IMG/VR virus record: IMGVR_UViG_2703718871_000019
Coordinates: 1-10,662 of that record
DNA length: 10,662 nucleotides
Reading direction: 5' to 3' (one strand)
Source of the DNA: a virus
Taxonomy: Duplodnaviria; Heunggongvirae; Uroviricota; Caudoviricetes
The notes under the pieces are model-generated. The model saw only the letters and a list, made by a program, of their open reading frames with translations, was not told the DNA's origin and made no database searches. Both the position numbers and the translations under genes were made by a program. Below, piece after piece: positions 1 through 10,662 of the stretch; position 1 is the first letter of the stretch; each line of letters begins with the position of its first letter.

Positions 1-798
1 TTAATGAACATTCGTCGCCGAAAACGAGTCTGTATCATTAGTGCGATGCAGTCTCTGCAAAGGATCTTGTTGATAAAATTGGCAGAAACGTTGCCACAAT
101 GAAGGGAAACGAGGAGCAAAAAGTTCTGGGGCGCTAAAGAAATATTCAGAAAGTACGGCAAAACATTCAGCAGGATCACTGGCAGCATAAGCATCAATGC
201 TCGCCGCATTCTCGCCAACTAATTCGATTTCTTCCTGAATGTTGTTCATTGCAGCATGAAGATCGTGTTCCCAGCCAGCAACCTCACGCAACGGAATAAA
301 GGGAACTCCGCTGGCGCGATCGCCGTTACGGGTGTCCAGCTTATGAGCGACTTCATGAATAATCAGGTTAAAACCAGAAGCATCAAAAGAATCTTGTATA
401 TCCAACCAGTTCAAAACGATAGGCCCTTGCTGCCAGCTCTGACCTGACTGAACAATACGTTGGTTATGCACCAGACCGATATCGTCTTCCCATTCATCAT
501 CGACCACAAATGGCGCAGGATAAATTAAGACTTCATGAAAACCATCCAGCCATTCCAGTCCTAACTCCAGAACGGGTAGGCAAAATAGAAGTGCTATCCG
601 GCAGCTTCTTAATGAATCCAGTTCAAAGCCCTGTAAAGGAACAAGCCGCTTTTGCTGTAAAAAACGTTCGGCAAGAGTGACTAATTTGCTTTGTTCCTGT
701 TCCGTCAGACACGTTAAAAGGGGGATCGATAGTGCTTCCTGCCAGGGAAGGGCAGTTTGATGTGCTGATTCTTGTACTTTCCAGGGCCACTTAATCAT
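1..798 (-). CDS. mtfA: MtfA (Mlc titration factor A), zinc-dependent peptidase-like protein; host gene
   Basis: The track ORF 1..837 (-) contains the sequence [23 protein letters not shown]... with an HEVAH zinc-binding motif, which I recognise as E. coli MtfA/YeeI. The likely true start is the internal Met at 798 (265 aa); the 13 upstream codons of the track ORF are probably not translated. Stop TAA is at 1-3. GC content is host-like. Confidence 0.88.
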
Positions 799-891
799 CG
801 TTTTGCTCGCAAACTCGTCACTTGAACAAAATTGCACGGACAGGGACTGTTAAAATGCCAAATTTCCTGGCATCATGGCAACCATCTGAAC

Positions 892-981
892 GGAGAGATG
901 CCGGAGCGGCTGAACGGACCGGTCTCGAAAACCGGAGTGGGGGCAACTCCACCGGGGGTTCAAATCCCCCTCTCTCCGCCA
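892..981 (+). tRNA. serU: tRNA-Ser (anticodon CGA), class II tRNA with long variable arm; prophage integration target
   Basis: Read by eye: acceptor stem GGAGAGA/TCTCTCC, discriminator G and encoded CCA at 979-981. Anticodon stem ACCGG/CCGGT encloses loop CTCGAAA, giving anticodon CGA. Long variable arm and T-arm GGGGG-TTCAAAT-CCCCC. Length 90 nt. mtfA is divergent and adjacent, as I recall for the E. coli serU locus. Confidence 0.93.
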
Positions 982-998
982 GAATTCAATCACTTACA

Positions 999-1060
999 CA
1001 TCATTAAGTCAATGATGAAAATCACACTTGGAATTACTTGGAATATTTTGTTGGAATATT
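999..1060. repeat. Candidate attL P'-arm: 7-bp inverted repeat CATCATT-n5-AATGATG (999-1017) and three direct TTGGAAT repeats (1028-1034, 1038-1044, 1051-1057)
   Basis: The repeats lie 18-80 bp downstream of the tRNA 3' end and overlap the 3' end of int, which is where arm-type Int binding sites sit in a lambda-type attL. The functional assignment is inference. Confidence 0.4.
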
Positions 1061-2059
1061 CTGGGGTAATGGTACATCCAGTGTGGGTGAGATCTTTACT
1101 TTTCTATCATAGATTAGCACCTGTCCTTCGGTCTTGTGACCAGAGAAAAGTTGCTTATCCCGGCTACTACCTTCGTAATCTGATATCCCCTTGGCTTTAA
1201 GGTCATGGAATGTAAAATCCGTCGCGATCCCTGATATTTGTCCAGCCAAATTTCTTGCCTCAACCCACATTTCATTAAATCCTTTATACATGTAACGGTT
1301 GCCGTACTGATTGCTGATTACATAGGCTGACTTGGGTAGCTGTTTAGCTTTTTCTATAACTGATTGCAGACGGGGAGTCCAGGCTTTTATCTGTTTCTTT
1401 CCTGTTTTACCTTGCTGGATAAAGATCCCGTCGTTTCCGATCTGTTCCCATTTCAGAGACAACACATCGGAAATCCTTGCTGCGCACAGGTATGCAATTT
1501 CCATTGCGATAAAAACAGGCACAGGAGCCACGCTTAATACGGCCTGGTATTCTTTGTCAGTCACATAGCGCTCTCGGTTTTTGGCCTTGAATTTACTTAC
1601 ACCGGTACAAGGATTAGCCTTTACATACCCTCGTTCATACCCCCAACTGTAAACGCGTGACATGCTGCTTTTTTCATGGTTTGCCTGCGTTTTACTCTGC
1701 TCGCCCCTTTTGTCCATGTATCGTCTGATGTGCTCTGGTTTTACAGAATCGGCCAGCACCTTACCAAATACGGCCAGCAGCTTTTTTTGATGTTGCAGAT
1801 AATCTTTTTGCGTTCTGGGACTAAGATCGCTGTAATAGGCGCTGGCGAGAAATTTTTCCCACAAACGCCCAAATGTCATTGCCCGATCGCGATGGTTAAT
1901 TGTTTCTTCGTACTTTTTCCATAATGCGGCTAAACCATCCTCGATTGCAGTTAAGGTTACAGATTCTCTGGATGTCGGTTTCCATACATAACTATATTTA
2001 TTGGGGTATACCTTTGGCGGTAATTTTTCGTGTTCGGGATTTTTCCTTCGTCTTCCCAT
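1034..2059 (-). CDS. int: Tyrosine recombinase, lambda-family phage integrase
   Basis: 341 aa. The N-terminus MGRRRKNPEHEKLPPKVY resembles the lambda Int arm-binding domain (MGRRRSHERRDLPPNLY). The C-terminal catalytic region has ARISDV (Arg), FHDLK (His) and GHKTEGQVLIYDR (His/Arg/Tyr nucleophile). The gene is immediately adjacent to the tRNA 3' end, and its start overlaps the xis stop (TAATG). Confidence 0.92.
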   Translation of the reverse strand: MGRRRKNPEHEKLPPKVYPNKYSYVWKPTSRESVTLTAIEDGLAALWKKYEETINHRDRAMTFGRLWEKFLASAYYSDLSPRTQKDYLQHQKKLLAVFGKVLADSVKPEHIRRYMDKRGEQSKTQANHEKSSMSRVYSWGYERGYVKANPCTGVSKFKAKNRERYVTDKEYQAVLSVAPVPVFIAMEIAYLCAARISDVLSLKWEQIGNDGIFIQQGKTGKKQIKAWTPRLQSVIEKAKQLPKSAYVISNQYGNRYMYKGFNEMWVEARNLAGQISGIATDFTFHDLKAKGISDYEGSSRDKQLFSGHKTEGQVLIYDRKVKISPTLDVPLPQNIPTKYSK

Positions 2060-2262
2060 TAGATCGCACCGAAATCAGGTTCAGCCTCACGTGGTGGTAA
2101 AGTGTTTCTACAGGTAAACAGTTCCCGACTGACGATCGGTTTTCCACTACGATTGGTATAGAACGGAAGCCCATTTTTTATTAACCAGTTGCGCTGGTGG
2201 CTTGCATATTTGCAGCCCGTTAATATTAGCAATTCATCTTCGGTTAAAAATAAGCTGCTCAT
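2059..2262 (-). CDS. xis: Excisionase-like small DNA-binding protein (Xis)
   Basis: 67 aa, directly upstream of int with a 1-nt stop/start overlap. The LTEDELLILTGCKYASHQRNWLIKNGLPF segment looks like the winged-helix of prophage excisionases (DUF4224-like, from memory). Position is canonical. Confidence 0.7.
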   Translation of the reverse strand: MSSLFLTEDELLILTGCKYASHQRNWLIKNGLPFYTNRSGKPIVSRELFTCRNTLPPREAEPDFGAI

Positions 2263-2278
2263 AGCTATATCTCATAAC

Positions 2279-2306
2279 CGCCGCTAACTATATGCGGTTA
2301 GCGGCG
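2279..2306. promoter_or_regulatory. Perfect 10-bp inverted repeat CGCCGCTAAC-n8-GTTAGCGGCG in the 58-bp exo-xis intergenic gap
   Basis: Seen directly: 2279-2288 is the reverse complement of 2297-2306. No U-run follows on the coding (minus) strand, so it is not an intrinsic terminator. It may be an operator or RNA processing element controlling xis-int. Confidence 0.4.
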
Positions 2307-2320
2307 ATCAGGGTTGAACA

Positions 2321-4759
2321 TTAAAAATCAGCCTGACTCGGGAACAGTTTTTGCCAGATAGCTGAAACGTATTTTGCCTGGTAACGCGCATCGTGCAGGG
2401 CATTATGGCGTTCACCCTCAAATGTGGTGACGTTGCGGGCATCGAAATCCATCACCAACCCCAGAGCGACCATCGTTCTTACATCGCGATCATTGGTGTA
2501 ACGCCACGGGCAGGGGATCTCCTGCCGTTCATATGAACGGCGTAAAATCACGTTGTCGAAGTTGGCTCCATTTCCCCAGACCTGAACAAAAAACTCACCG
2601 GAGTTTTCGTCTATAAATTCCCGTAATTGTAAAAGCGCATCATCAAGCGGTATTCGATCAGCTAAAATGGCGGCACGGGCTTCGCCAGAGCGTTGAAGCC
2701 ACCATTCGATGGTGCTTATGTCTACAGTGCCGCCACATGTACCCATATCAATTATTTTGCTGAATTCAGGCCCCTGCTCTCCGGTTTGTGGATCGAAAAA
2801 TACAGCGCCTATTGAGGCTATTGGTGCGTCAGGATTTTTGCCCATTGTTTCAAGGTCAATCATCAGATGGTGCCACAACCTGTTGGTGGATGTGATTTCA
2901 CGATGACCGTTCACCTTAATTAAGGGATTTGCTGTCTCGCCTGTTTCATTATTGCCATTGGCATGTTGATCGCCTTCGGTGCACTCCTTGTTCGGGAGTC
3001 CGGCACTTTCCATTTCCTCCGGATCTTTTTCCCGTGCTTCATCCTGGCTTTCTTCGTTGAATGTCTCCTGGTAGGTTGCGTCACCCATCACTGCGCCACA
3101 ATCAGGGCAGTTACCACCACCAGTCTGATTGCATGCGGTACAAACTTTTTCCTCTTCCTGTTGCACTACTGGTTCAGGTTGTTTCGTTTCTGGCTCGTTT
3201 TGTAACGCATTTGGGCTGTTTTGTTCCGCTTTCTGACCGTTCTGTTCCGTTTCTTGCTGGTTCTGGTTCACAGAATCGCAGGTTTCAATCCCCTTAACCC
3301 ATTTTGGATCATTCGGGTCGCTAATCCCTTCAACAAACTCACCACGAGAAGCGGCAAGCAATTTGTCGGCATCTGGTCGACTGATGTCTGCTGCCTCCAT
3401 AATTTTATTTACTTCTTCAGCAGTAACTTTTACCTGTGACTTGTCATCCAGCGGCTGCGGGTCCTGATGATGTTCAACTGTATCCGCTGCCATTGTTTCA
3501 GCCGTTGCCTGTTCATCTGCCATTGCGCCAGATGGTTGCGGGTTTTCTTCATTATTTTTTTCTTCTTCTGTTTTGCACTCAGCAGCCAGTCCGCCGTTAA
3601 TTTCTTCCAGGATATCTTTTTCCGGTGTATGCCGGGCAGCCGTGAGAGTTTCAGTTGTGGGATTCTCGTGATCGGTCTCTGTCAGGTTGGCATTGATATA
3701 CCCCTGAAGACGTCCCGGGTAGTGATAAAACTCAGGGGGGGCGCTCCGGATAAGTGCAAAAATAGCTGCGCGGGAATAGTCCAGGATACCAGGGGTTGCG
3801 CGAAGTGCTGGGGACCATTCCCTGAACGGACTTTCTTTTTTCAGGACGATTTCTTTTGCGCGACGATAAACGCTCACGGGTATTTCATAAATATTAAAAT
3901 CCATCGGAAGTGTGGCTGCTGCAATCTCCACATCCAGAGTATCGAGGGTGTGTACTAAATCAGGATTACGATCCGTTTTATTTCCGCCACCGGCATTTGC
4001 ACCGGAAGCCGTGCGGGTGATGCGAGAAACACGATTTCCTTTCATCCACTCTTTTGTCAGCAGACCTCGATCGGTATAGTCAGCGTCCAGGTATGCTTCG
4101 AAAAAAGCAGTCATTAACCCCAGACTGGAATTAACGGGATTAGGGAAAACTTTGTCTGTGTCGCGTACCAGTTTATGAAGGTCGCGAATCTCCAGCGGGT
4201 CGAGCAGCTTTGTGTTGTGGGAAATAGCCAGGGCAGTAACAGCCGGCAGTTCTTCAGCTCGTGCGATATGTAATGCCTGAAGTTCTTCCCGTGAAACGTG
4301 CGTTACCGGTTTTTCGCTGCCATGTTGCGCAAGCCAGCGAATGGGCAGTTCCTGACCGGAAATCGGCAGGAGCATATTATCCTCAATCTCAGCCATGTTT
4401 TCGCCATTGACGTTGGTATTGTCAGTGCTGGCTGGTTTGTCCTGAACTGAGGGGGAGGGCGCTATAAATATCATTGTGATGCCATCTTCCCCGCCTTTTT
4501 CATAGCGGTTGCAGAATTCAGTATCAAACACGCCTTCCGGTGGAAGGTCATTCACAACGGGGAAATGGACGCGGACGGGTTTTTTGAAATCATCTGCGTC
4601 GTAGCCTGCCTCGTCCATTGCAACAACGCACCGTGAGATGGCAACAGATAATTTTTTTGCTGTAGTCCAGTAAAAACCTCCTTTAATCCCAAGGCGTTTT
4701 CTGACCTTGTCATTTTTTGCTTCGCAATATAGCGAAAATTCTTCTTTATCAGTGCTCAT
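2321..4759 (-). CDS. Prophage exonuclease: RecE/exonuclease VIII-like N-terminal and central scaffold fused to a C-terminal DnaQ-like DEDDh 3'-5' exonuclease domain
   Basis: 812 aa with GAGGT SD 7 nt upstream of the ATG. Residues about 110-260 (NTNVNGENM...[26 protein letters not shown]...[30 protein letters not shown]) match what I remember of Rac RecE. An acidic low-complexity linker spans aa about 375-620 and contains a C-x2-C-x8-C-x2-C motif ([16 protein letters not shown], about nt 3095-3142). The C-terminal about 180 aa carry DEDDh motifs: MIDLETMG (Exo I), FDNVIL (Exo II) and [13 protein letters not shown] (Exo III), at about nt 2345-2890. Confidence 0.8.
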
Positions 4760-4851
4760 GGATAAACCTCATAACTATTTTAAGGTTGTACGAACCCCTG
4801 CCATTGCTGGCATGCTTAATCAACGGGTATGGCGTTAATACGGCTGCTGGG

Positions 4852-5040
4852 TTATCCAGCCGGTGTTTCGTTATTCAGGTACAGCGATACTTTTTTTAAC
4901 GGGAGGCATTCACCAGAAATTTTTTGCTCGTCTCTTGCCTGGAGGCAGGATTCTTTACTGGCATAAATTCCGGTAATCACATTCTGTGATTCACCCGTTA
5001 TAAGAAAAACCGTCATCACCAGTGCAAATGCTGAAGTCAT
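4852..5040 (-). CDS. Hypothetical small protein with hydrophobic N-terminus (possible signal or membrane anchor)
   Basis: 62 aa. Its start overlaps the stop of the upstream small ORF (ATGA-type coupling). The N-terminus MTSAFALVMTVFLITG is hydrophobic. It sits between rha and exo, where lambdoid phages carry kil/cIII-type small genes. No family recognised. Confidence 0.4.
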   Translation of the reverse strand: MTSAFALVMTVFLITGESQNVITGIYASKESCLQARDEQKISGECLPLKKVSLYLNNETPAG

Positions 5041-5225
5041 TGACGTTCTCCGAAAATACCAAGTTCAAGAAGGGCAATTCTGGAGAGTATGGAATTATCA
5101 TTGAGAAGATAAGGCTCATATTTTCTCATCTTAATGGCATCTTCAGTAAACTCCCGGTTACTGAGCAGAACACCAATATCAAAACACCCTTCAGACGTAT
5201 TAACGTTTGGTAATAACGTTTCCAT
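5037..5225 (-). CDS. Hypothetical small prophage protein
   Basis: 62 aa with GAGGA SD 8 nt upstream of the ATG, lying 10 bp after the Rha stop and translationally coupled to the next ORF. No family recognised. Confidence 0.45.
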   Translation of the reverse strand: METLLPNVNTSEGCFDIGVLLSNREFTEDAIKMRKYEPYLLNDNSILSRIALLELGIFGERQ

Positions 5226-5235
5226 TATCGCGTCC

Positions 5236-5793
5236 TCAACAATGAATTTTTAGTAATTGCTCCACAGTCATATTTTTAATTGCGCTCCGGTTTACAAGAG
5301 TCCAGCCTTGTTTCTCCAGATAAAACTGGAAGGTATCCAGGGTGCAGACCATTGCACCATCAGGAACGGTTTCAGTGAATTTGATATTGCCGTGTTCGTC
5401 GAGACGGATAACCAGGGTACGTCCGTCCCCGTGAATCATTTTGTCGGGAGACGGGGCGTTATTCTGGCGCAGTTCTTTCTCCATGCGATCGAACTCAGCG
5501 ATGTAGGCTTCTTTAAATGCAGCGGCTTTTTTGCCGGTGAAGCCCATCACCAGGAAAACGAAGCCGTTTTTGGTGATTTGGTACATAGGGAGTTTGCGCC
5601 CGGTTGAGTCGGTATATTCACTGGGCGAAAAATTTCGCTCAGTGAATTCTGCTGAACAGTCTAGACGTGAAATTTTTGCCAGTACATCTTTGTGTGGTTT
5701 CCGGAAATACTCGGCAACAGCTAAAGAGGATGTAACAGCACGCCCATTGGCGATAGTAATTTCAGGGTGAGAAAGGGCAGGGATAGTAGCCAT
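5236..5793 (-). CDS. Rha-family phage regulatory protein (Phage_pRha domain)
   Basis: The segment AVTSSLAVAEYFRKPHKDVLAKI...LPMYQITKNGFVFLVMGFTGKKAAAFKEAYIAEFDRME matches the Rha domain pattern. The track ORF runs to 6087 (283 aa), but the Rha domain begins at about aa 110 and an intrinsic terminator lies inside the extension. I therefore prefer the internal start at 5793 (GGAGG 8 nt upstream, product MATIPALSHPEITIANGR..., 185 aa). Alternative starts are 5820 or 6087. Confidence 0.75.
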   Translation of the reverse strand: MATIPALSHPEITIANGRAVTSSLAVAEYFRKPHKDVLAKISRLDCSAEFTERNFSPSEYTDSTGRKLPMYQITKNGFVFLVMGFTGKKAAAFKEAYIAEFDRMEKELRQNNAPSPDKMIHGDGRTLVIRLDEHGNIKFTETVPDGAMVCTLDTFQFYLEKQGWTLVNRSAIKNMTVEQLLKIHC

Positions 5794-5957
5794 GATGGCA
5801 GCCTCCATGATGAATTTCATTAACTCACCACCGGAGGTAGCAATCTCATGGGTGGTGAGACGCACAGGGTTGCTACAACCGGTCATCATGGAACCCGGCC
5901 AGCCTTGCGGCTGCCCTGCACGCCCCACCATAATCTGAATGTGGCTGTGCATTACGC

Positions 5958-5982
5958 ATAAAAAAACCGCCTGAGCGCGGTT
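5958..5982 (-). terminator. Rho-independent terminator for leftward transcription (tL1-like)
   Basis: On the minus strand: stem AACCGC / GCGGTT with loop GCTCAG, followed by T-run TTTTTTT-AT (plus strand A7 at 5960-5966 precedes the hairpin at 5965-5982). No T-run follows on the plus strand, so it is unidirectional. Confidence 0.55.
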
Positions 5983-6574
5983 ATGCGCCATGATGAACAT
6001 CGGGGTAGCAATCCCGGCACCCGCTTTATGAGGTGCAGGTGCACTATAATTCCACCCGTTCTGGTTTTCAATAGCTACATTCAACATTTTCTCTTACCTT
6101 TCATCACCGAAGTGAACTTTGTCGATGCAGTGCCTGGTGCCTCCAGGTGACGTTAACCAGTTAACAATTAACGCCGGAATACAGAAGTATGCCCGTTACG
6201 CCCCGTAAAAGACCACTTTACGGTTTTAACTGTTCCGCGTGCGCTTAGCCGCATTCACCGCATCACAAAATTCACTTTAAAAAGGGTGGCAGAGCAGTCA
6301 CGGAGTAGAACTGATGCCACCAAAGACTACACATGGGTATTGTGGCGGGGCTGTCACTTAAGCGTATGGTCAACCTGACAACCCGGTGCATTTTCTGGAG
6401 CAATGGAGGAAACCCCAGCCATACTTACCGCCGCGCCATTTCGCGGATTGCCACAACCGGAAGCGCACGGTCGAAGAAATCTAACGACAAGCCTTCTAAG
6501 GGAAAGAGCTTCGCCGTACGCTTTCGCGTTGTGTGCCTGCTTTTAACCACGTCAGGCGAGGTGGTTTCCGTCGT

Positions 6575-6624
6575 TCCCCAACGACAGGAAATCTGTATAA
6601 TCTGGATATCCCCAACAACAGGAA
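6575..6624. promoter_or_regulatory. Two 16-bp direct repeats TCCCCAAC(G/A)ACAGGAA (6575-6590, 6609-6624) flanking a TG-TATAAT element (6594-6601)
   Basis: The repeats are 15/16 identical and 34 bp apart, which is not a multiple of 3 and argues against coding. A perfect -10 hexamer lies between them. Candidate promoter and regulator binding sites upstream of the + strand 2-TM gene. Confidence 0.4.
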
Positions 6625-6799
6625 GGTGTTTTATATGGTGGTTCAAAAGAATTGTTCAGGTACTGGTAAGCCTGCGGACAGGGCGGACATTCCGAATACC
6701 AGGAAACATATACCTGAGAAAAACATACGACCAAAACCATCTCCAGCTCCTTCAGAGGAGAGGGGGAACAGCAACAATCAAGCAAGCAGGTGATGATAT

Positions 6800-7246
6800 A
6801 TGGACCGGGATGATATTCTTGACAGGGTTTTATATGGCTATTTTCTTGAACAACTATTCTCTGTAGCGACTGGTCGTCTCGATAAACTTCTCTCAGTGGT
6901 GAGTATTATCCTCGGTTCATCTGTCATTGGTGGATTTATTCCTGAAGTTTCTGGAGTTCTCATTGTTGTGATAGCAACCGTTCAAACGATTTACGGATTC
7001 GGACAAAAGTCAGGTAACGCAATGAGAAAATCCGCAGAATATCTGCAGCTTTATGATGATGCAGAAAAATATTCCGATTCGGAATTGAAAATTCAGTTAA
7101 AGCTTCTGGAAAAAACAGATGATAATATTTGGTCGTCGCTTAAAGATATCGCAATCTTAAAAACCCGGATCAAAATAGGAATCTCCGTAGAACAACAAGA
7201 GAAACTGTCTGCAAAATCCAAATTGATGCGATTCCTTTGTGGTTAG
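6800..7246 (+). CDS. AT-rich moron gene encoding a 148-aa two-TM membrane protein with a charged helical C-terminal tail; candidate superinfection-exclusion or abortive-infection effector
   Basis: AGGTGA SD 7 nt upstream of the ATG. GC content is about 33-35 percent against about 50 percent in flanks (two 60-nt lines counted by hand). Predicted TM1 LLSVVSIILGSSVIGGFI and TM2 VLIVVIATVQTIYGF, followed by a Lys/Glu-rich helical tail. It runs opposite to the surrounding leftward operon, in the position that sieB occupies in Rac-type prophages. No family recognised with certainty. Confidence 0.6.
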   Translation: MDRDDILDRVLYGYFLEQLFSVATGRLDKLLSVVSIILGSSVIGGFIPEVSGVLIVVIATVQTIYGFGQKSGNAMRKSAEYLQLYDDAEKYSDSELKIQLKLLEKTDDNIWSSLKDIAILKTRIKIGISVEQQEKLSAKSKLMRFLCG

Positions 7247-7344
7247 GAATACCCAGATTGTTAAAGATCATGCCGGATGCTTACCCGTGTCCGGCGAACG
7301 TATTCCACTTCGCCTGTGGAGAACTCTTTAATTACTAACCTTCA

Positions 7345-7497
7345 TCAGTCAGAGTTTCTTGCTAACCAGCGACGCGCGCCAGCTGCGGTTTTAAACGTTT
7401 TGCTTCTGGTATACGTCATCGCGGTAAACGTGCCGTCCTGGTTGGGAAACACGCCGCATACCAGAGATTCGTTGTTGCCAAGATTGAGCGTATCCAT
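7345..7497 (-). CDS. Small prophage protein, YdaF-like (DUF1391-like), 50 aa
   Basis: Below the 60-aa cutoff of the track and found by manual translation: ATG at 7497 with GAGGT SD 5 nt upstream, product MDTLNLGNNESLVCGVFPNQDGTFTAMTYTRSKTFKTAAGARRWLARNSD, stop TGA at 7345-7347. It resembles my recollection of Rac YdaF and lies between the repressor operon and the sieB-position gene as in Rac. The overlapping + strand ORF 7277..7537 is rejected. Confidence 0.5.
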   Translation of the reverse strand: MDTLNLGNNESLVCGVFPNQDGTFTAMTYTRSKTFKTAAGARRWLARNSD

Positions 7498-7701
7498 GTT
7501 GACCTCATTTACCCTTAACGCCGGGTCGCGGAACTAAAAACCTGCTGCGCTGTTATACAAAGTATTCCCGCCGTCATGTTCATACGCCTCGGGCTGGCTA
7601 CTTAACCCCTGACCACTGCCGGGTAACTCGAAGTATTGCCTGGCGTTCTGTGGGGCGGGGGGGTTGATGAATGAACAATACCACTACTATTTAATTATGT
7701 A

Positions 7702-7716
7702 AATAGCAGTGCTATT
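7702..7716. promoter_or_regulatory. Perfect palindrome AATAGCA-g-TGCTATT; candidate OL-type operator over a leftward early promoter
   Basis: 7-bp arms are exact reverse complements. The half-site TGCTATT recurs twice in the repressor/cro intergenic region (8808-8814, 8833-8839). It sits just downstream of the repressor-operon terminator and upstream of the ydaF-like gene, with -35/-10-like hexamers nearby on the minus strand (TTGCCA; TATTGT). Confidence 0.4.
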
Positions 7717-7724
7717 ATCGTGGC

Positions 7725-7750
7725 AAGAAAAAAACCACCCGAAGGTGGTT
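7725..7750 (-). terminator. Rho-independent terminator ending the repressor-antitoxin-toxin operon
   Basis: On the minus strand: AACCACC-TTCG-GGTGGTT (7-bp stem, UUCG tetraloop) followed by TTTTTTTCT, 15 bp downstream of the toxin stop codon. No T-run follows on the plus strand. Confidence 0.7.
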
Positions 7751-7764
7751 GTTGACAGGAAGGA

Positions 7765-8055
7765 TTAACAGGTTTTGTTTGGATACTGTCTTCGTGAGTG
7801 AACTACATTTACGATCTCGATGTTAGATGCTGTTACTCGGTAAAGTATTATGTAGTTAGGATGAGTCACTATCTCACGAAGACTTGGAACTCTTTCGCTC
7901 GGTGGGTACAGATAAGGGTGTTCAGTAAGTGACAAAACTGATGTTTCAATGCGTATTTTTAGTCTACGTGCAGCGGGAGGGTTTTCCTTAGCAATATAGG
8001 CTACGATCTGACGTAAATCATCACGTGCAGAAGGTAGCCATAAAATGGGCAGCAT
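7765..8055 (-). CDS. ParE/RelE-superfamily type II toxin (ParE2-like)
   Basis: 96 aa. N-terminus MLPILWLPSARDDLRQIVAYIAKENPPAARRL and C-terminal ...IEIVNVVHSRRQYP are typical of ParE toxins. Its start overlaps the stop of the upstream antitoxin (TAATG). Confidence 0.85.
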   Translation of the reverse strand: MLPILWLPSARDDLRQIVAYIAKENPPAARRLKIRIETSVLSLTEHPYLYPPSERVPSLREIVTHPNYIILYRVTASNIEIVNVVHSRRQYPNKTC

Positions 8056-8246
8056 TACTCACTCCTGTTCGTTGCAGCTAATTGAGCAATAAGGTTTTCC
8101 ATTTCAGCCATTACTTCGTCATGTGGAATTGCAGGACGGGGATCTGAGAGGCTTGCTGCCACTTTGGCTCGCAACCATTCGTTATAGCTGTTTTCTTGTT
8201 CGACTGTTTCAAATTCAGAAATTATCGGGGAAAGGGCTGTACTCAT
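8055..8246 (-). CDS. Small type II antitoxin, PaaA2-like, partner of the ParE-type toxin
   Basis: 63 aa, acidic, immediately upstream of and translationally coupled to the toxin. GGAGG SD 6 nt upstream of the ATG. Size and arrangement match the PaaA2 antitoxin of the O157 paaR2-paaA2-parE2 module as I recall it. Confidence 0.7.
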   Translation of the reverse strand: MSTALSPIISEFETVEQENSYNEWLRAKVAASLSDPRPAIPHDEVMAEMENLIAQLAATNRSE

Positions 8247-8263
8247 GTTTTGACCTCCTCAGA

Positions 8264-8764
8264 TTAGGCGCGACGACCCTTTTGCGCGGCTAGCCATCGC
8301 GCAACGATTTCTTCAATTGATTCTTTTTTCTCCTTCATTTCCTTAAGCATTTTCTCTTTATCTTCTTTGGGGAAAGCCCTGAACGTCTGGAGCAAATCCC
8401 GCTCCATGGGGTCTATATTAAACGGAAGTTCGTTTTCCGATTGTTCCATATCTGCAGATATAGTGACAACATTGTCCTCCCCAGATTCTTGGGGATACAT
8501 CCTTACAATTTGTAACAACTCGGCCATATCTGGTCTGATTGACTCGGGAGGAACTTGCAGCAACCCTGCGAACTTGATAACAGCCTCAAGATTTAAAGGT
8601 GTCTGACCATTTAGATAATGGCTTACAGCTCCCTGTGTCGAAAATCCCAGAATTTCTGCCGCACGCTCTTGGGTTAACCCTAGTTGATTTTTTTTCGCCG
8701 TCCAGATTTCTTTCAGTCTCTGGGCGGCTTGCAGGTCGATCTCTGACAGGGATTTTCTTTTCAT
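8264..8764 (-). CDS. HTH (XRE/cI-type) transcriptional regulator, PaaR2/RacR-like; likely prophage immunity repressor and TA operon regulator
   Basis: 166 aa. N-terminal helix-turn-helix LGLTQERAAEILGFSTQGAVSHYLNGQ. No S24 peptidase domain is visible in the C-terminus. It is the first gene of the operon and is divergent from the cro-like gene across a repeat-rich operator region. Confidence 0.8.
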   Translation of the reverse strand: MKRKSLSEIDLQAAQRLKEIWTAKKNQLGLTQERAAEILGFSTQGAVSHYLNGQTPLNLEAVIKFAGLLQVPPESIRPDMAELLQIVRMYPQESGEDNVVTISADMEQSENELPFNIDPMERDLLQTFRAFPKEDKEKMLKEMKEKKESIEEIVARWLAAQKGRRA

Positions 8765-8871
8765 ACCTTCAATTCTAATAAGATTATTAATCTCTTTGAA
8801 ATAGTGATGCTATTTACTTTTAAAAATAACAATGCTATTAATGATCGTGATGACATCACATGAGGTGAACA
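8765..8871. promoter_or_regulatory. Divergent promoter/operator region between the repressor and the cro-like gene (OR analogue)
   Basis: AT-rich 107-bp gap containing two TGCTATT motifs (8808-8814, 8833-8839) and the perfect palindrome GTGATG-a-CATCAC (8847-8859) just upstream of the cro-like SD. Confidence 0.55.
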
Positions 8872-9147
8872 ATGAATCTTGGAGAATATTTGCATCATTC
8901 CGGTATAACTCAGAAGCATTTTGCTGAAATTGTTGGGGTAACCCAAGGGATGGTAAGCCATGTCATTACCGGACGGGCGAAACTTACGGGGGAAAAAATT
9001 TTACGCTGGTGCGAAGCAACAGGCTGGATAGTAACTCCGCACGAGATTGATAGCAGTACTTATCCCAACCCAACCGACGGCTTACCTGTCGAGTATCAGG
9101 CTAACACACAACCAGAGGCGGGGGTGATTCATGAAAATCAAGCATGA
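8872..9147 (+). CDS. Cro/YdaS-like HTH DNA-binding protein
   Basis: 91 aa with GAGGTGA SD. HTH segment QKHFAEIVGVTQGMVSHVITGRAKLTGEKI. Divergent from the repressor and first gene of the rightward operon. Confidence 0.75.
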   Translation: MNLGEYLHHSGITQKHFAEIVGVTQGMVSHVITGRAKLTGEKILRWCEATGWIVTPHEIDSSTYPNPTDGLPVEYQANTQPEAGVIHENQA

Positions 9148-9556
9148 ACACATCCGCATGGCAATGAATGCCTGGGCGTATCCAGACGGTGAGAAAGTTC
9201 CAGCAGCTGAAATAGCCCGGACTTATTTCGAGCTGGGGATGACGTTCCCGGAACTGTACGACGACAGCCATCCGGAAGCCCTGGCTCGTAATACCCAGAA
9301 AATTTTCCGCTGGGTGGAGAAGGACACGTCTGATGCTGTTGAAAAAATTCAGGCGCTGTTACCGGCGATCGAAAAGGCGATGCCGCCTTTGCTGGTGGCC
9401 CGTATGCGCAGTCACAGTTCTGAATATTACCGGGAGATCGTCGAACGACGGGATCGGCTGGTGAAAGATGTGGATGATTTTGTCGCTGTAGCGATCGCCT
9501 GGGGCACCCTGACTAACAGTGGTGGTCAGCCTGGTAATGCAGTTGTTGTGCATTGA
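9131..9556 (+). CDS. YdaT-like protein (cII-position regulator/toxin-like family)
   Basis: 141 aa, overlapping the cro-like gene by 17 nt. Size and position match Rac YdaT; the sequence-level resemblance is from memory only. Confidence 0.65.
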   Translation: MKIKHEHIRMAMNAWAYPDGEKVPAAEIARTYFELGMTFPELYDDSHPEALARNTQKIFRWVEKDTSDAVEKIQALLPAIEKAMPPLLVARMRSHSSEYYREIVERRDRLVKDVDDFVAVAIAWGTLTNSGGQPGNAVVVH

Positions 9557-9618
9557 CCAACAATATTTATACCGGATTTCTTCCGGAAGTTCGTGGGTAA
9601 AGTTCGGTATCAGAAGAG

Positions 9619-10662
9619 GTGAGTATGGCTAATGCCTGGCTCAGATTGTGGCATGACATGCCAAATGACCCCAAGTGGCGAACGATTGCCAGGGTATCAG
9701 GACAGCCAATCGCAACAGTGATGGCAGTGTATATCCATCTTCTGGTGAGCGCGTCACGAAATGTCACGACATGTCACGGCGTGTCACTACGTGGTCACAT
9801 TGATGTCACGACGGAAGATTTAGCAAGTGCGCTTGATGTGACGGAAGACGTAATTGATTCAATTTTGCATGCAATGCAGGGGCGGGTTCTGGATGGTGAC
9901 CTTATTTCCGGATGGGAAAAACGTCAGGTGCTGAAAGAGGACAATGGTAACGTTTCGCAAACGGCAAAATCCCCGGCAGAGCGCAAGAGAGCGCAGCGGG
10001 AGCGCGAAAAGCTGCGGAAATATGATGCTGATTGTCACGATGAGTCACGACGTGTCACGCATCTGTCACGACAAGTCACGACAGATAAAGATACAGATAC
10101 AGAATTAAACCCCACACATAACGCGCGCATGCGCGAGAGTGCTCCAACCGGTGAGTCGAATGGTGCGTCGTTGCAGACAGCCGAACCTGAATACCTGGAC
10201 GGCCTGAGCGAACCGATCGGGAAATTTTCGATGACCACTGTCTGGCAGCCGTCGCCGGATTTTCGACAACGGGCAGCAGTGTGGGGTATGGCTCTGCCTG
10301 AGCCGGAATTTACACCTGCTGAGCTTGCCGCATTCCGGGATTACTGGATGGCGGAGGGGAAGGTTTTCACGCAGGTTCAGTGGGAGCAGAAATTTGCCCG
10401 CCACGTGCAGCACGTCAGGGCACAGGTAAAACCAGTCAGCAAGGGGGTAAGCCATGCAGCATCAGGTGGCACGGCATCACGGGCAGTTCAGAAAATCCGG
10501 GCAGCACGAGAACAGTGGGAACGTGAAAACGGATTTATCAGCAACGGAAACGGCCTGGAAGCTGTGGGAACTTATGGGGGAGGTGTATTCGAACCGATGG
10601 ACCCAGAAGAACGGGGCTGCGCCGTCGAAACTCTGGATTGCTCAGATTGGCGCGATGACTGA
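9619..10662 (+). CDS. Phage replication initiation protein (YdaU/O-like N-terminal region with DnaT-like C-terminal domain)
   Basis: 347 aa with AGAGGTGAG SD. N-terminus ANAWLRLWHDMPNDPKWRTIARVSG is typical of prophage replication proteins. C-terminal WQPSPDFRQRAAVWGMALPEPEFTPAELAAFRDYWMAEGKVF resembles the primosomal DnaT C-terminal domain. The gene contains iteron arrays. Stop TGA is the last 3 nt of the window. Confidence 0.8.
   Translation: MSMANAWLRLWHDMPNDPKWRTIARVSGQPIATVMAVYIHLLVSASRNVTTCHGVSLRGHIDVTTEDLASALDVTEDVIDSILHAMQGRVLDGDLISGWEKRQVLKEDNGNVSQTAKSPAERKRAQREREKLRKYDADCHDESRRVTHLSRQVTTDKDTDTELNPTHNARMRESAPTGESNGASLQTAEPEYLDGLSEPIGKFSMTTVWQPSPDFRQRAAVWGMALPEPEFTPAELAAFRDYWMAEGKVFTQVQWEQKFARHVQHVRAQVKPVSKGVSHAASGGTASRAVQKIRAAREQWERENGFISNGNGLEAVGTYGGGVFEPMDPEERGCAVETLDCSDWRDD
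9751..9845. repeat. Iteron array 1: six to seven GTCACGA/GTCAC repeats at 10-11 bp spacing inside the replication gene
   Basis: GTCAC at 9753, 9763, 9773, 9783, 9794 and 9805, with a degenerate TGTGACG at about 9837. The repeats are in frame and encode ...SASRNVTTCHGVSLRGHIDVTTED.... Confidence 0.65.
10031..10110. repeat. Iteron array 2 (five GTCACG repeats) followed by an AT-rich tract; probable replication origin
   Basis: GTCACG at 10034, 10044, 10054, 10065 and 10075 with 10-11 bp phasing, followed immediately by ACAGATAAAGATACAGATACAGAATTAAA. This is the lambda-type arrangement of iterons plus an AT-rich unwinding region within the initiator gene. Confidence 0.65.

Follow-up and report, generated by a model that had tools for sequence, protein, structure and literature searches.

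SieB, a protein family (PF14163) with members in Rac, lambda and P22, is said, in work of Ranade and Poteete from 1993, to abort the lytic growth of heterologous phages and to be regulated by an antisense RNA. RexAB of phage lambda is likewise expressed in the lysogen and follows a membrane-depolarising suicide logic. A third group of membrane proteins, SLATT (SMODS and SLOG-associating two-transmembrane, or 2TM, effectors), is represented in NCBIfam by SLATT_1 and SLATT_4 and in Pfam by SLATT_1-6. SLATT proteins, which have two or three transmembrane (TM) helices, are predicted to act as pore-forming effectors (10.1101/2021.12.02.470933; 10.64898/2026.04.29.721553), and their activation and membrane action are regarded as a central open question (10.64898/2026.04.29.721553). 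Neither SLATT-like 2TM effectors nor morons occupying the sieB position are new. The present analysis concerns a 10,662-nt stretch of virus DNA (positions 1 to 10,662 of IMG/VR record IMGVR_UViG_2703718871_000019; the window, meaning this whole stretch), in which a 148-aa open reading frame (ORF) and a proline-rich micro-ORF directly upstream of it form a two-gene cassette at the position held by sieB in Rac, its larger product probably being a remote relative of SLATT.

In the Rac prophage of strain K-12, the genes run in the order kilR (-), the small RNA (sRNA) KilS (-), sieB (+), ydaF/DUF1391 (-), ydaG and racR. The window has dicB, then the DicF sRNA (-), the cassette (+) and a DUF1391 gene (-), DicF occupying the position of KilS (coordinates of all features are given in Table 1). 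Slot and orientation are identical in the two cases (sRNA, plus-strand gene, DUF1391), and the upstream DNA is homologous: about 115 nt before the cassette align with the sequence that precedes Rac sieB, and in this alignment the ATG of sieB coincides with the first ATG in the cassette, which is that of the micro-ORF. Gene order and this start-on-start alignment bear out the sieB position that a first-pass annotation had proposed for the 148-aa ORF. That annotation had also correctly described the ORF as lying between the immunity region (the repressor-like and cro-like genes) and the RecE-like recombination gene, and as transcribed against the leftward early operon, DicF, the DUF1391 gene, dicB, the recE-like gene, xis and int all being on the minus strand.

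Judged by alignment, the cassette takes the place of sieB behind common upstream DNA. SieB and the 148-aa protein are both small and membrane-associated, at about 150-190 aa, and both are encoded against the early-left operon. Homology between the two proteins was considered and rejected, as comparison of the family profile with Rac SieB gave an hhalign probability of 0.3%, and PF14163 matches Rac SieB (1.5e-31) but not the window protein, which rules out a SieB identity. For SieB, Esc and antisense RNA provide self-protection; the Esc-type internal start has no conserved counterpart in the 148-aa family, in which M75 is not conserved, and Rac SieB lacks an upstream micro-ORF.

The shared upstream DNA, termed element A, contains a hairpin (6546-6565) and direct repeats of the form TCCCCAAC(G/A)ACAGGAA at 6575-6590 and 6609-6624. 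These repeats (TCCCCAACAACAGGAA) flank a perfect TATAAT at 6596-6601 and are followed by a Shine-Dalgarno (SD) sequence. The hairpin shows a compensatory change at one position in locus L004, and RNA folding of the 5' element gave no structure signal (z-score -0.8). Element A is present in 4429 of 5426 complete E. coli genomes (~82%), with up to nine copies per genome, and was also located at L015 (~6560-6671), L012 (5526-5646) and L078 (2280-2362). The plus-strand cargo behind it differs, being sieB, a 66-aa protein, a 113-aa ORF or the 148-aa cassette, and the slot in other strains holds sieB, the 66-aa soluble protein or no plus-strand gene. In Klebsiella-type prophages, element A stands after the cassette and ahead of a second plus-strand ORF. 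Its role may be to carry a portable expression signal or to mark a recombination boundary for morons. The cassette itself is carried by 89 of the 5426 genomes (1.6%), always on the chromosome; many of the carriers are Shiga-toxin-type strains, several being O145:H28 (such as RM12761 and RM13516). Set against the frequency of element A, this makes the slot worth mining for prophage defence genes.

A second conserved element, element B, lies 3' of the cassette in the window and 5' of it in Klebsiella, Edwardsiella and Raoultella-type loci. As element B changes sides between loci, the cassette is bracketed by side-swapping elements.

The first-pass annotation had treated the 148-aa ORF as a single gene with a 0.7 kb upstream region. 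That region is not empty but contains DicF, element A and a second, coupled gene, a 52-aa proline-rich micro-ORF (MVVQKNCSGTGKPADRADIPNTRKHIPEKNIRPKPSPAPSEERGNSNNQASR) with an SD sequence of its own (AGGAAGG, 6620-6626). The stop codon (TGA) of the micro-ORF forms part of AGGTGA, the SD-like sequence serving the 148-aa gene, and is 6 nt away from the ATG at 6800; from this arrangement the two genes are read as translationally coupled. An equivalent micro-ORF of 26-55 aa, with its stop 1-18 nt before the start codon of the large gene, was found at 28 of the 30 distinct loci of the main survey, and one of the two loci without it appears disrupted; outside that survey, another five distant loci were read, most of which have a similar micro-ORF. 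Its presence with the large gene at nearly all loci indicates that the unit of inheritance is a two-gene cassette. Standard annotation misses the micro-ORF, so that the cassette is recorded as a single hypothetical protein, the label given to the 148-aa protein by the Prokaryotic Genome Annotation Pipeline (PGAP).

The micro-ORF peptides have the motif (H/Y)..RPxPxP in common, as seen in the window (...HIPEKNIRPKPSPAPSEERGNSNNQASR), Salmonella (...HIPEKNVRPTPPPPVPTKSDSAEKK), Enterobacter (MSDENTDYFEKHMPVKQRPPVPPKED), the Klebsiella type (MEGKMLINQFG...PDGQVPYRPAPSPRPP..), Paraburkholderia (...THVSPRPAPPPPPPPKK) and Photobacterium (...SDKFHHRRESLPPPKPDGDNLN). The codons of the motif vary synonymously (CGA, AGA, CGT or AGG for Arg; CCT, CCA or CCG for Pro), which points to selection on the peptide and indicates that the micro-ORF is coding. 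Conservation is confined to the C-terminal 15-25 residues. At L058 and L067 (upstream of 4001), the large protein is ~92% identical to that of the window, the N-terminal half of the micro-ORF is unrelated (MTEQRAQAGGGNSTHKTVWD...) and its C-terminal half is near-identical, with one or two substitutions, a pattern that points to a mosaic junction within the micro-ORF.

In being short, in carrying Arg and Pro at the C-terminus and in lying immediately upstream of another gene, the micro-ORF resembles leader and arrest peptides, such as the RAPP-type ApdA/ApdP, SecM and the polyproline tracts whose stalling depends on elongation factor P (EF-P). The motif itself, RPxPxP, differs from the RAPP motif of the ApdA/ApdP arrest peptides (described in PMC10951233 and PMC7897499). 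The RPxPxP or polyproline run is located near the stop codon of the micro-ORF and near the SD sequence of the large gene. Polyproline runs reach eight residues in some micro-ORFs, and L005 and L010 have polyproline variants; the micro-ORF of the window contains no consecutive prolines and continues for 13 codons after the motif. Seven of the peptides, all Pro-rich and of low complexity, had no match in Pfam. Folding of the RNA at the junction of the micro-ORF and the 148-aa ORF (z-score -0.6) gave no attenuator or SD-sequestering structure.

The 148-aa ORF opens with ATG and has a GC content of 38.5% (33.6% at third codon positions), compared with 47.2% for the window and 46-49% for the flanks. 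No other 447-nt stretch of the window is lower in GC (0.6th percentile), so the first-pass description of the ORF as AT-rich stands in this sense; the values then given, 33-35% within the ORF and about 50% in the flanks, were not recovered, and dicB is equally low at 38.1%. The two TM helices and the helical, charged tail proposed at that time were confirmed by hydropathy (Kyte-Doolittle) and structure prediction. Two adjacent hydrophobic segments (approximately residues 29-47 and 50-69) are joined by P48-E49, and the C-terminal 79 residues are helical in the AlphaFold2 model and basic (12 K, 3 R, 6 E and 6 D; isoelectric point 9.05). The model, built from a 94-sequence alignment, is entirely helical, with a predicted local distance difference test (pLDDT) score of 93.9 and a predicted template modelling score of 0.85. 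It places helices at 3-44, 48-65, 67-86, 93-105, 113-126 and 138-147, the first three having a pLDDT above 90; with only seven close relatives, the pLDDT was 61. The layout comprises an acidic N-terminal helix (3-28), the TM hairpin (~29-69) and a basic four-helix C-terminal domain (70-148). The basic residues at the ends of the hairpin, R26/K29 before the first TM helix and K70/R76/K77 after the second, fit an N-in, C-in topology. The product is accordingly modelled as a small inner-membrane protein with a tight two-helix hairpin, its N-terminal helix and C-terminal domain being predicted on the same side of the membrane.

The 148-aa protein matches PHROG 6315, an unnamed group of unassigned function, at 4e-24. 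An exhaustive HMMER profile search returned 145 clusters at 50% identity, made up of stand-alone proteins of ~150-170 aa matching over their full length, and this length is kept across many genera down to ~20-25% identity. The TM hairpin is present in all 94 aligned members. When the homologue search was relaxed to E<=10, the same 86 proteins were obtained, with no borderline SLATT-annotated proteins gained. Sources include Escherichia, Salmonella, Enterobacter, Klebsiella, Serratia, Yersinia, Edwardsiella, Providencia, Aeromonas and Paraburkholderia, and a Photobacterium member was found by a scan of genomes for loci, for which a 20-sequence family alignment served as query. The family moves between prophages of Enterobacterales, Aeromonas, Photobacterium and Burkholderiaceae. 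Of 12 gene-called contexts, 11 show the gene as a lone opposite-strand gene of a prophage, usually situated between cI/cro or YdaS/YdaT and KilR/RecE/int. Enterobacterial-type cassettes and flanks also occur at L003 (phage EKP1, labelled Elizabethkingia) and L019 (a contig of Chryseobacterium sp. 18061), the micro-ORF and element B of the latter closely resembling the Klebsiella type; these two records may carry wrong host labels or come from contaminated assemblies.

No Pfam, NCBIfam or PADLOC model matched the window protein above threshold, in agreement with the first-pass view that no family could be assigned. In PADLOC-DB 2.0, it matched Csx1 alone, at E 0.01, and no system was matched. 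The tentative likeness to SLATT suggested at that stage fared better in part, as SLATT is the only family signal that recurs. The NCBIfam model SLATT_4 matches the window protein at E 0.011 (15.6 bits, against a cut-off of 55) and 24 of the 94 members individually at E<0.01 (best 2.2e-5), SLATT_1 matches three of the 94 (best 4.5e-5), and no other family recurs in more than two members. The family consensus matches SLATT_4 at 1.7e-4 (21.5 bits), residues 36-96 aligning with positions 37-106 of the 154 in the model, a region that covers the hairpin and the following helix. Across the 94 members, the only recurrent PADLOC matches were to the models of the DRT-associated SLATT (RTasSLATT) and the CBASS 2TM effector, in three members each (best ~3e-4). 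In a Foldseek search of the predicted viral structures in BFVD, most of the top 14 matches were SLATT-named, with probability ~1.0 and a query-normalised TM-score of 0.5-0.66 but an E-value of only ~1e-2 and a large root-mean-square deviation. One member (P0191) is named SLATT in UniRef, and the two adjacent TM helices flanked by helices that characterise the SLATT core are present by hydropathy and in the AlphaFold2 model. The lines from NCBIfam, PADLOC, Foldseek and the UniRef name agree, each being weak. On these profile and model comparisons, the 148-aa protein probably represents a branch of the SLATT superfamily that has diverged very far; its membership of the superfamily is not demonstrable, and it certainly lies outside the catalogued SLATT families. 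Comparisons with the PDB were uninformative, and no solved SLATT structure was found for comparison.

With described SLATT proteins, the 148-aa protein has in common the two-TM hairpin core with flanking helices, the small size and carriage by mobile elements or prophages. Unlike the hairpin, the C-terminal four-helix domain had no detected match. The described SLATT systems (CBASS, RADAR, DRT3 and DRT10/UG17) have a cyclase, SLOG, reverse transcriptase or RADAR partner, in place of which the cassette has the proline-rich micro-ORF. Literature searches turned up no paper that deals with the family, with KilS or with a SLATT gene in the position of sieB; among the libraries and papers searched, the family, its micro-ORF partner, the lack of a sensor enzyme and the exchange with sieB behind a common 5' element are undescribed. 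The question of how SLATT proteins are activated persists partly because they are normally embedded in multi-component systems; a 148-aa SLATT-like protein with a 26-55-aa peptide as its only constant partner would allow activation and pore formation to be studied in a minimal system. In addition, the locus offers a concrete, testable case in which one cargo has been exchanged for another at the classical sieB position.

Its context suggests a function in defence or exclusion. Chances appear about even that the cassette is a two-gene moron serving as a lysogen-expressed abortive-infection or exclusion cassette. In the lysogen, the cassette would be on from a weak promoter of its own, for which TATAAT at 6596-6601 in element A, with a weak -35, is the candidate, and the early-left promoter, with its repressor-type operators, would be shut. 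The membrane protein would be a divergent SLATT-type effector, activated when another phage infects; it would then oligomerise, depolarise or permeabilise the inner membrane and abort the infection, acting functionally like SieB or RexB. The comparison with lambda RexAB extends to prophage carriage, to lysogen expression (here deduced) and to a membrane-depolarising suicide logic, but RexB has four TM helices, needs the RexA sensor and has no homology to the 148-aa protein. At the candidate -10, a viral contig (L042, 2900-3029) has a 9-nt tandem duplication in which TGTATAATC occurs twice.

The micro-ORF could restrain the effector in either of two ways. It may encode a labile partner or antitoxin, lost on host shut-off so that the effector is set free, or it may act in cis as a leader that limits and gates translation of the downstream gene, its Arg/Pro-rich C-terminus slowing ribosomes at the start site. 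The restriction of conservation to the C-terminus and the position of the micro-ORF favour the leader, against which count the lack of consecutive prolines in the window micro-ORF and the absence of RNA structure joining the two genes.

Self-immunity could be provided by antisense transcription. The 15-bp palindrome AATAG-N5-CTATT occurs in four copies, two at 7677-7716 and two between the repressor-like and cro-like genes, and the first pair overlaps a promoter-like site that faces leftward and lies immediately beyond the ParE terminator. On the model of lambda OL and OR, these pairs resemble the left and right operators of the prophage, and the site at 7675-7716 is interpreted as a repressor-controlled early-left promoter (PL). 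A leftward transcript from it would read the ydfA-like DUF1391 gene, the cassette in antisense, then DicF and dicB; on prophage induction, such transcription over the cassette would silence it. The same regulatory scheme is described for sieB (Ranade and Poteete 1993).

Several observations weigh against the reading as a lysogen-expressed SLATT-type defence cassette. All SLATT matches remain below the curated cut-off (15.6-21.5 bits against 55), the Pfam SLATT models gave no match even at E<=10, weak matches of this kind could be inflated by hydrophobic composition, and the fold is a simple one. The 12 gene-called contexts show no SMODS cyclase, SLOG, reverse transcriptase or RADAR gene at a distance of 5 kb or less. 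A sigma-70 consensus scan, penalised by the weak -35, called no plus-strand promoter for the cassette. Element A is partly missing before the cargo gene of L078, in the same slot, suggesting that the true promoter may lie elsewhere, and the family member at L084 is co-directional with phage structural genes.

A superinfection-exclusion protein that blocks DNA entry, at the injection channel or through a host membrane factor, without killing the cell, would account for a small two-TM inner-membrane protein encoded by an opposite-strand moron, and no enzymatic or sensor partner would be needed. Known injection blockers of the small inner-membrane type, P22 SieA, T4 Imm and HK97 gp15, share this design. 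SieA is summarised in PMC11436027. This explanation is placed ahead of the other alternatives but is unlikely, as Pfam, PHROGs and PADLOC gave no match to an Imm, SieA or Sie family, the recurrent remote likeness is only to suicide-type SLATT/2TM effectors, and neither a conserved 80-aa cytoplasmic domain nor a coupled micro-ORF is known from injection blockers. A role in the prophage's own life cycle or in host manipulation, as a holin/antiholin-like lysis modulator or a DicB/KilR-like membrane modulator, comes next and is also improbable. Two TM helices followed by a charged C-terminus recall class II holins, the homologue in phage EKP1 adjoins a lysis cassette, on the opposite strand and as the sole such case, the co-directional L084 member would fit, and the neighbours dicB and DicF act on host cell division. 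Nearly all loci, however, are early-left and on the strand opposite to lytic transcription, no holin family was matched in Pfam or PHROGs, and interchangeability with sieB, together with the rarity of the gene in a near-universal slot of E. coli, marks it as accessory and moron-like.

Slightly less is to be said for a toxin-antitoxin-like addiction module, in which the peptide would neutralise a membrane toxin and mainly stabilise the prophage. The small upstream gene is tightly coupled to the membrane-protein gene and co-inherited with it, and the prophage already carries PaaA2-ParE, so such modules are tolerated in the region. The micro-ORF, however, has no DNA-binding or known antitoxin domain in Pfam, retention of its C-terminal residues with exchange of the N-terminal half would fit a cis-acting leader equally, and stabilisation and defence are not mutually exclusive. 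That the ORF arose by chance or is decaying in AT-rich intergenic DNA might be suspected from its low GC content, its "hypothetical protein" label and the lack of a Pfam domain, but full-length conservation to ~20-25% identity, the confident AlphaFold2 model and the synonymous changes in the micro-ORF effectively refute it.

Relative to the abortive-infection or exclusion cassette described above, a more specific proposal, as doubtful as the addiction module, would make the locus a minimal defence system that senses infection through translation. The RPxPxP or polyproline tract would stall or release ribosomes near the start of the SLATT-like gene, so that phage-altered translation (EF-P dependence, ribosome or tRNA status, or shut-off) would switch on a pore protein that has no sensor, leading to cell death; jointly with this, the sieB slot and the portable 5' element would form a general cargo-swap hotspot in lambdoid prophages.

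The window covers the immunity region and left arm of a lambdoid prophage of the Rac/Qin type from Escherichia coli, and matches to its DNA in complete genomes of that species reach 93-99% identity. The likely integration site is the tRNA-Ser(CGA) gene, directly beside the integrase gene. Left of the tRNA gene lies an ORF of mtfA-like host DNA, which puts the start of the window outside the prophage.

Table 1. Features of the window, with strand and the basis of the assignment where one applies.
Feature	Position	Strand	Basis or remark
mtfA-like host gene	1-837	-	
tRNA-Ser(CGA)	892-981	+	
Integrase	1034-2059	-	
Excisionase	2059-2262	-	
RecE-like exonuclease, 812 aa	2321-4759	-	
DUF1482	4852-5040	-	
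dicB	5037-5225	-	
Ash/Rha ORF, 283 aa, overlapping C4 antisense RNA and IsrK	5236-6087	-	
C4 antisense RNA	5848-5935	-	Confident Rfam match
IsrK	5960-6036	-	Confident Rfam match
DicF sRNA, left border of slot	6284-6335	-	Rfam RF00039, 61.1 bits
Element A, conserved 5' element, candidate promoter and leader	6520-6634	+	Upstream of Rac sieB and other plus-strand cargo
Micro-ORF, 52 aa, unannotated	6635-6793	+	
Target ORF, 148 aa	6800-7246	+	
Element B, ~57-nt boundary element with hairpin GCCGGA...TCCGGC at 7272-7295	7270-7326	not assigned	blastn among loci
DUF1391 gene (ydfA/ydaF-like), right border of slot	7345-7497	-	Pfam PF07151, 1.5e-29
Candidate OL/PL, two AATAG-N5-CTATT palindromes over TTTACA-17-TATTGT (7703-7675)	7675-7716	-	Promoter scan and shared repeats
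Terminator, strong hairpin	7733-7750	-	After ParE gene
ParE	7765-8055	-	
PaaA2	8055-8246	-	
Helix-turn-helix (HTH) repressor-like gene	8264-8764	-	
Candidate OR, two AATAG-N5-CTATT sites between HTH repressor-like and cro-like genes	8800-8839	not assigned	Repeats shared with 7675-7716
cro-like gene	8872-9147	+	
YdaT-like gene	9131-9556	+	
Replication gene	from 9619	+	

The HTH repressor-like gene, PaaA2 and ParE form an operon with its terminator at the position of lambda cI-rexA-rexB, and the lysogenic transcript seems to carry the toxin and antitoxin genes along. Rfam had no match over the cassette itself; to its left it gave DicF and, just downstream of DicF, a sub-threshold match to the sRNA STnc100 (6125-6263, minus strand; 29 bits against a gathering threshold of 47, E 5e-4).

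The antirepressor-like gene of the 283-aa Ash/Rha ORF probably has its true start downstream of the C4 and IsrK RNAs, by analogy with IsrK/AnrP of Gifsy-1, and the whole Ash/Rha, C4 and IsrK segment is absent from strain JNEC-KY176 (L001). In the 812-aa early-left protein, an Exonuc_VIII (RecE) region at the N-terminus is joined to an Rv2179c-like 3'-5' exoribonuclease domain (2.1e2 bits) at the C-terminus, parts that are encoded by two separate genes at the Salmonella locus L004.

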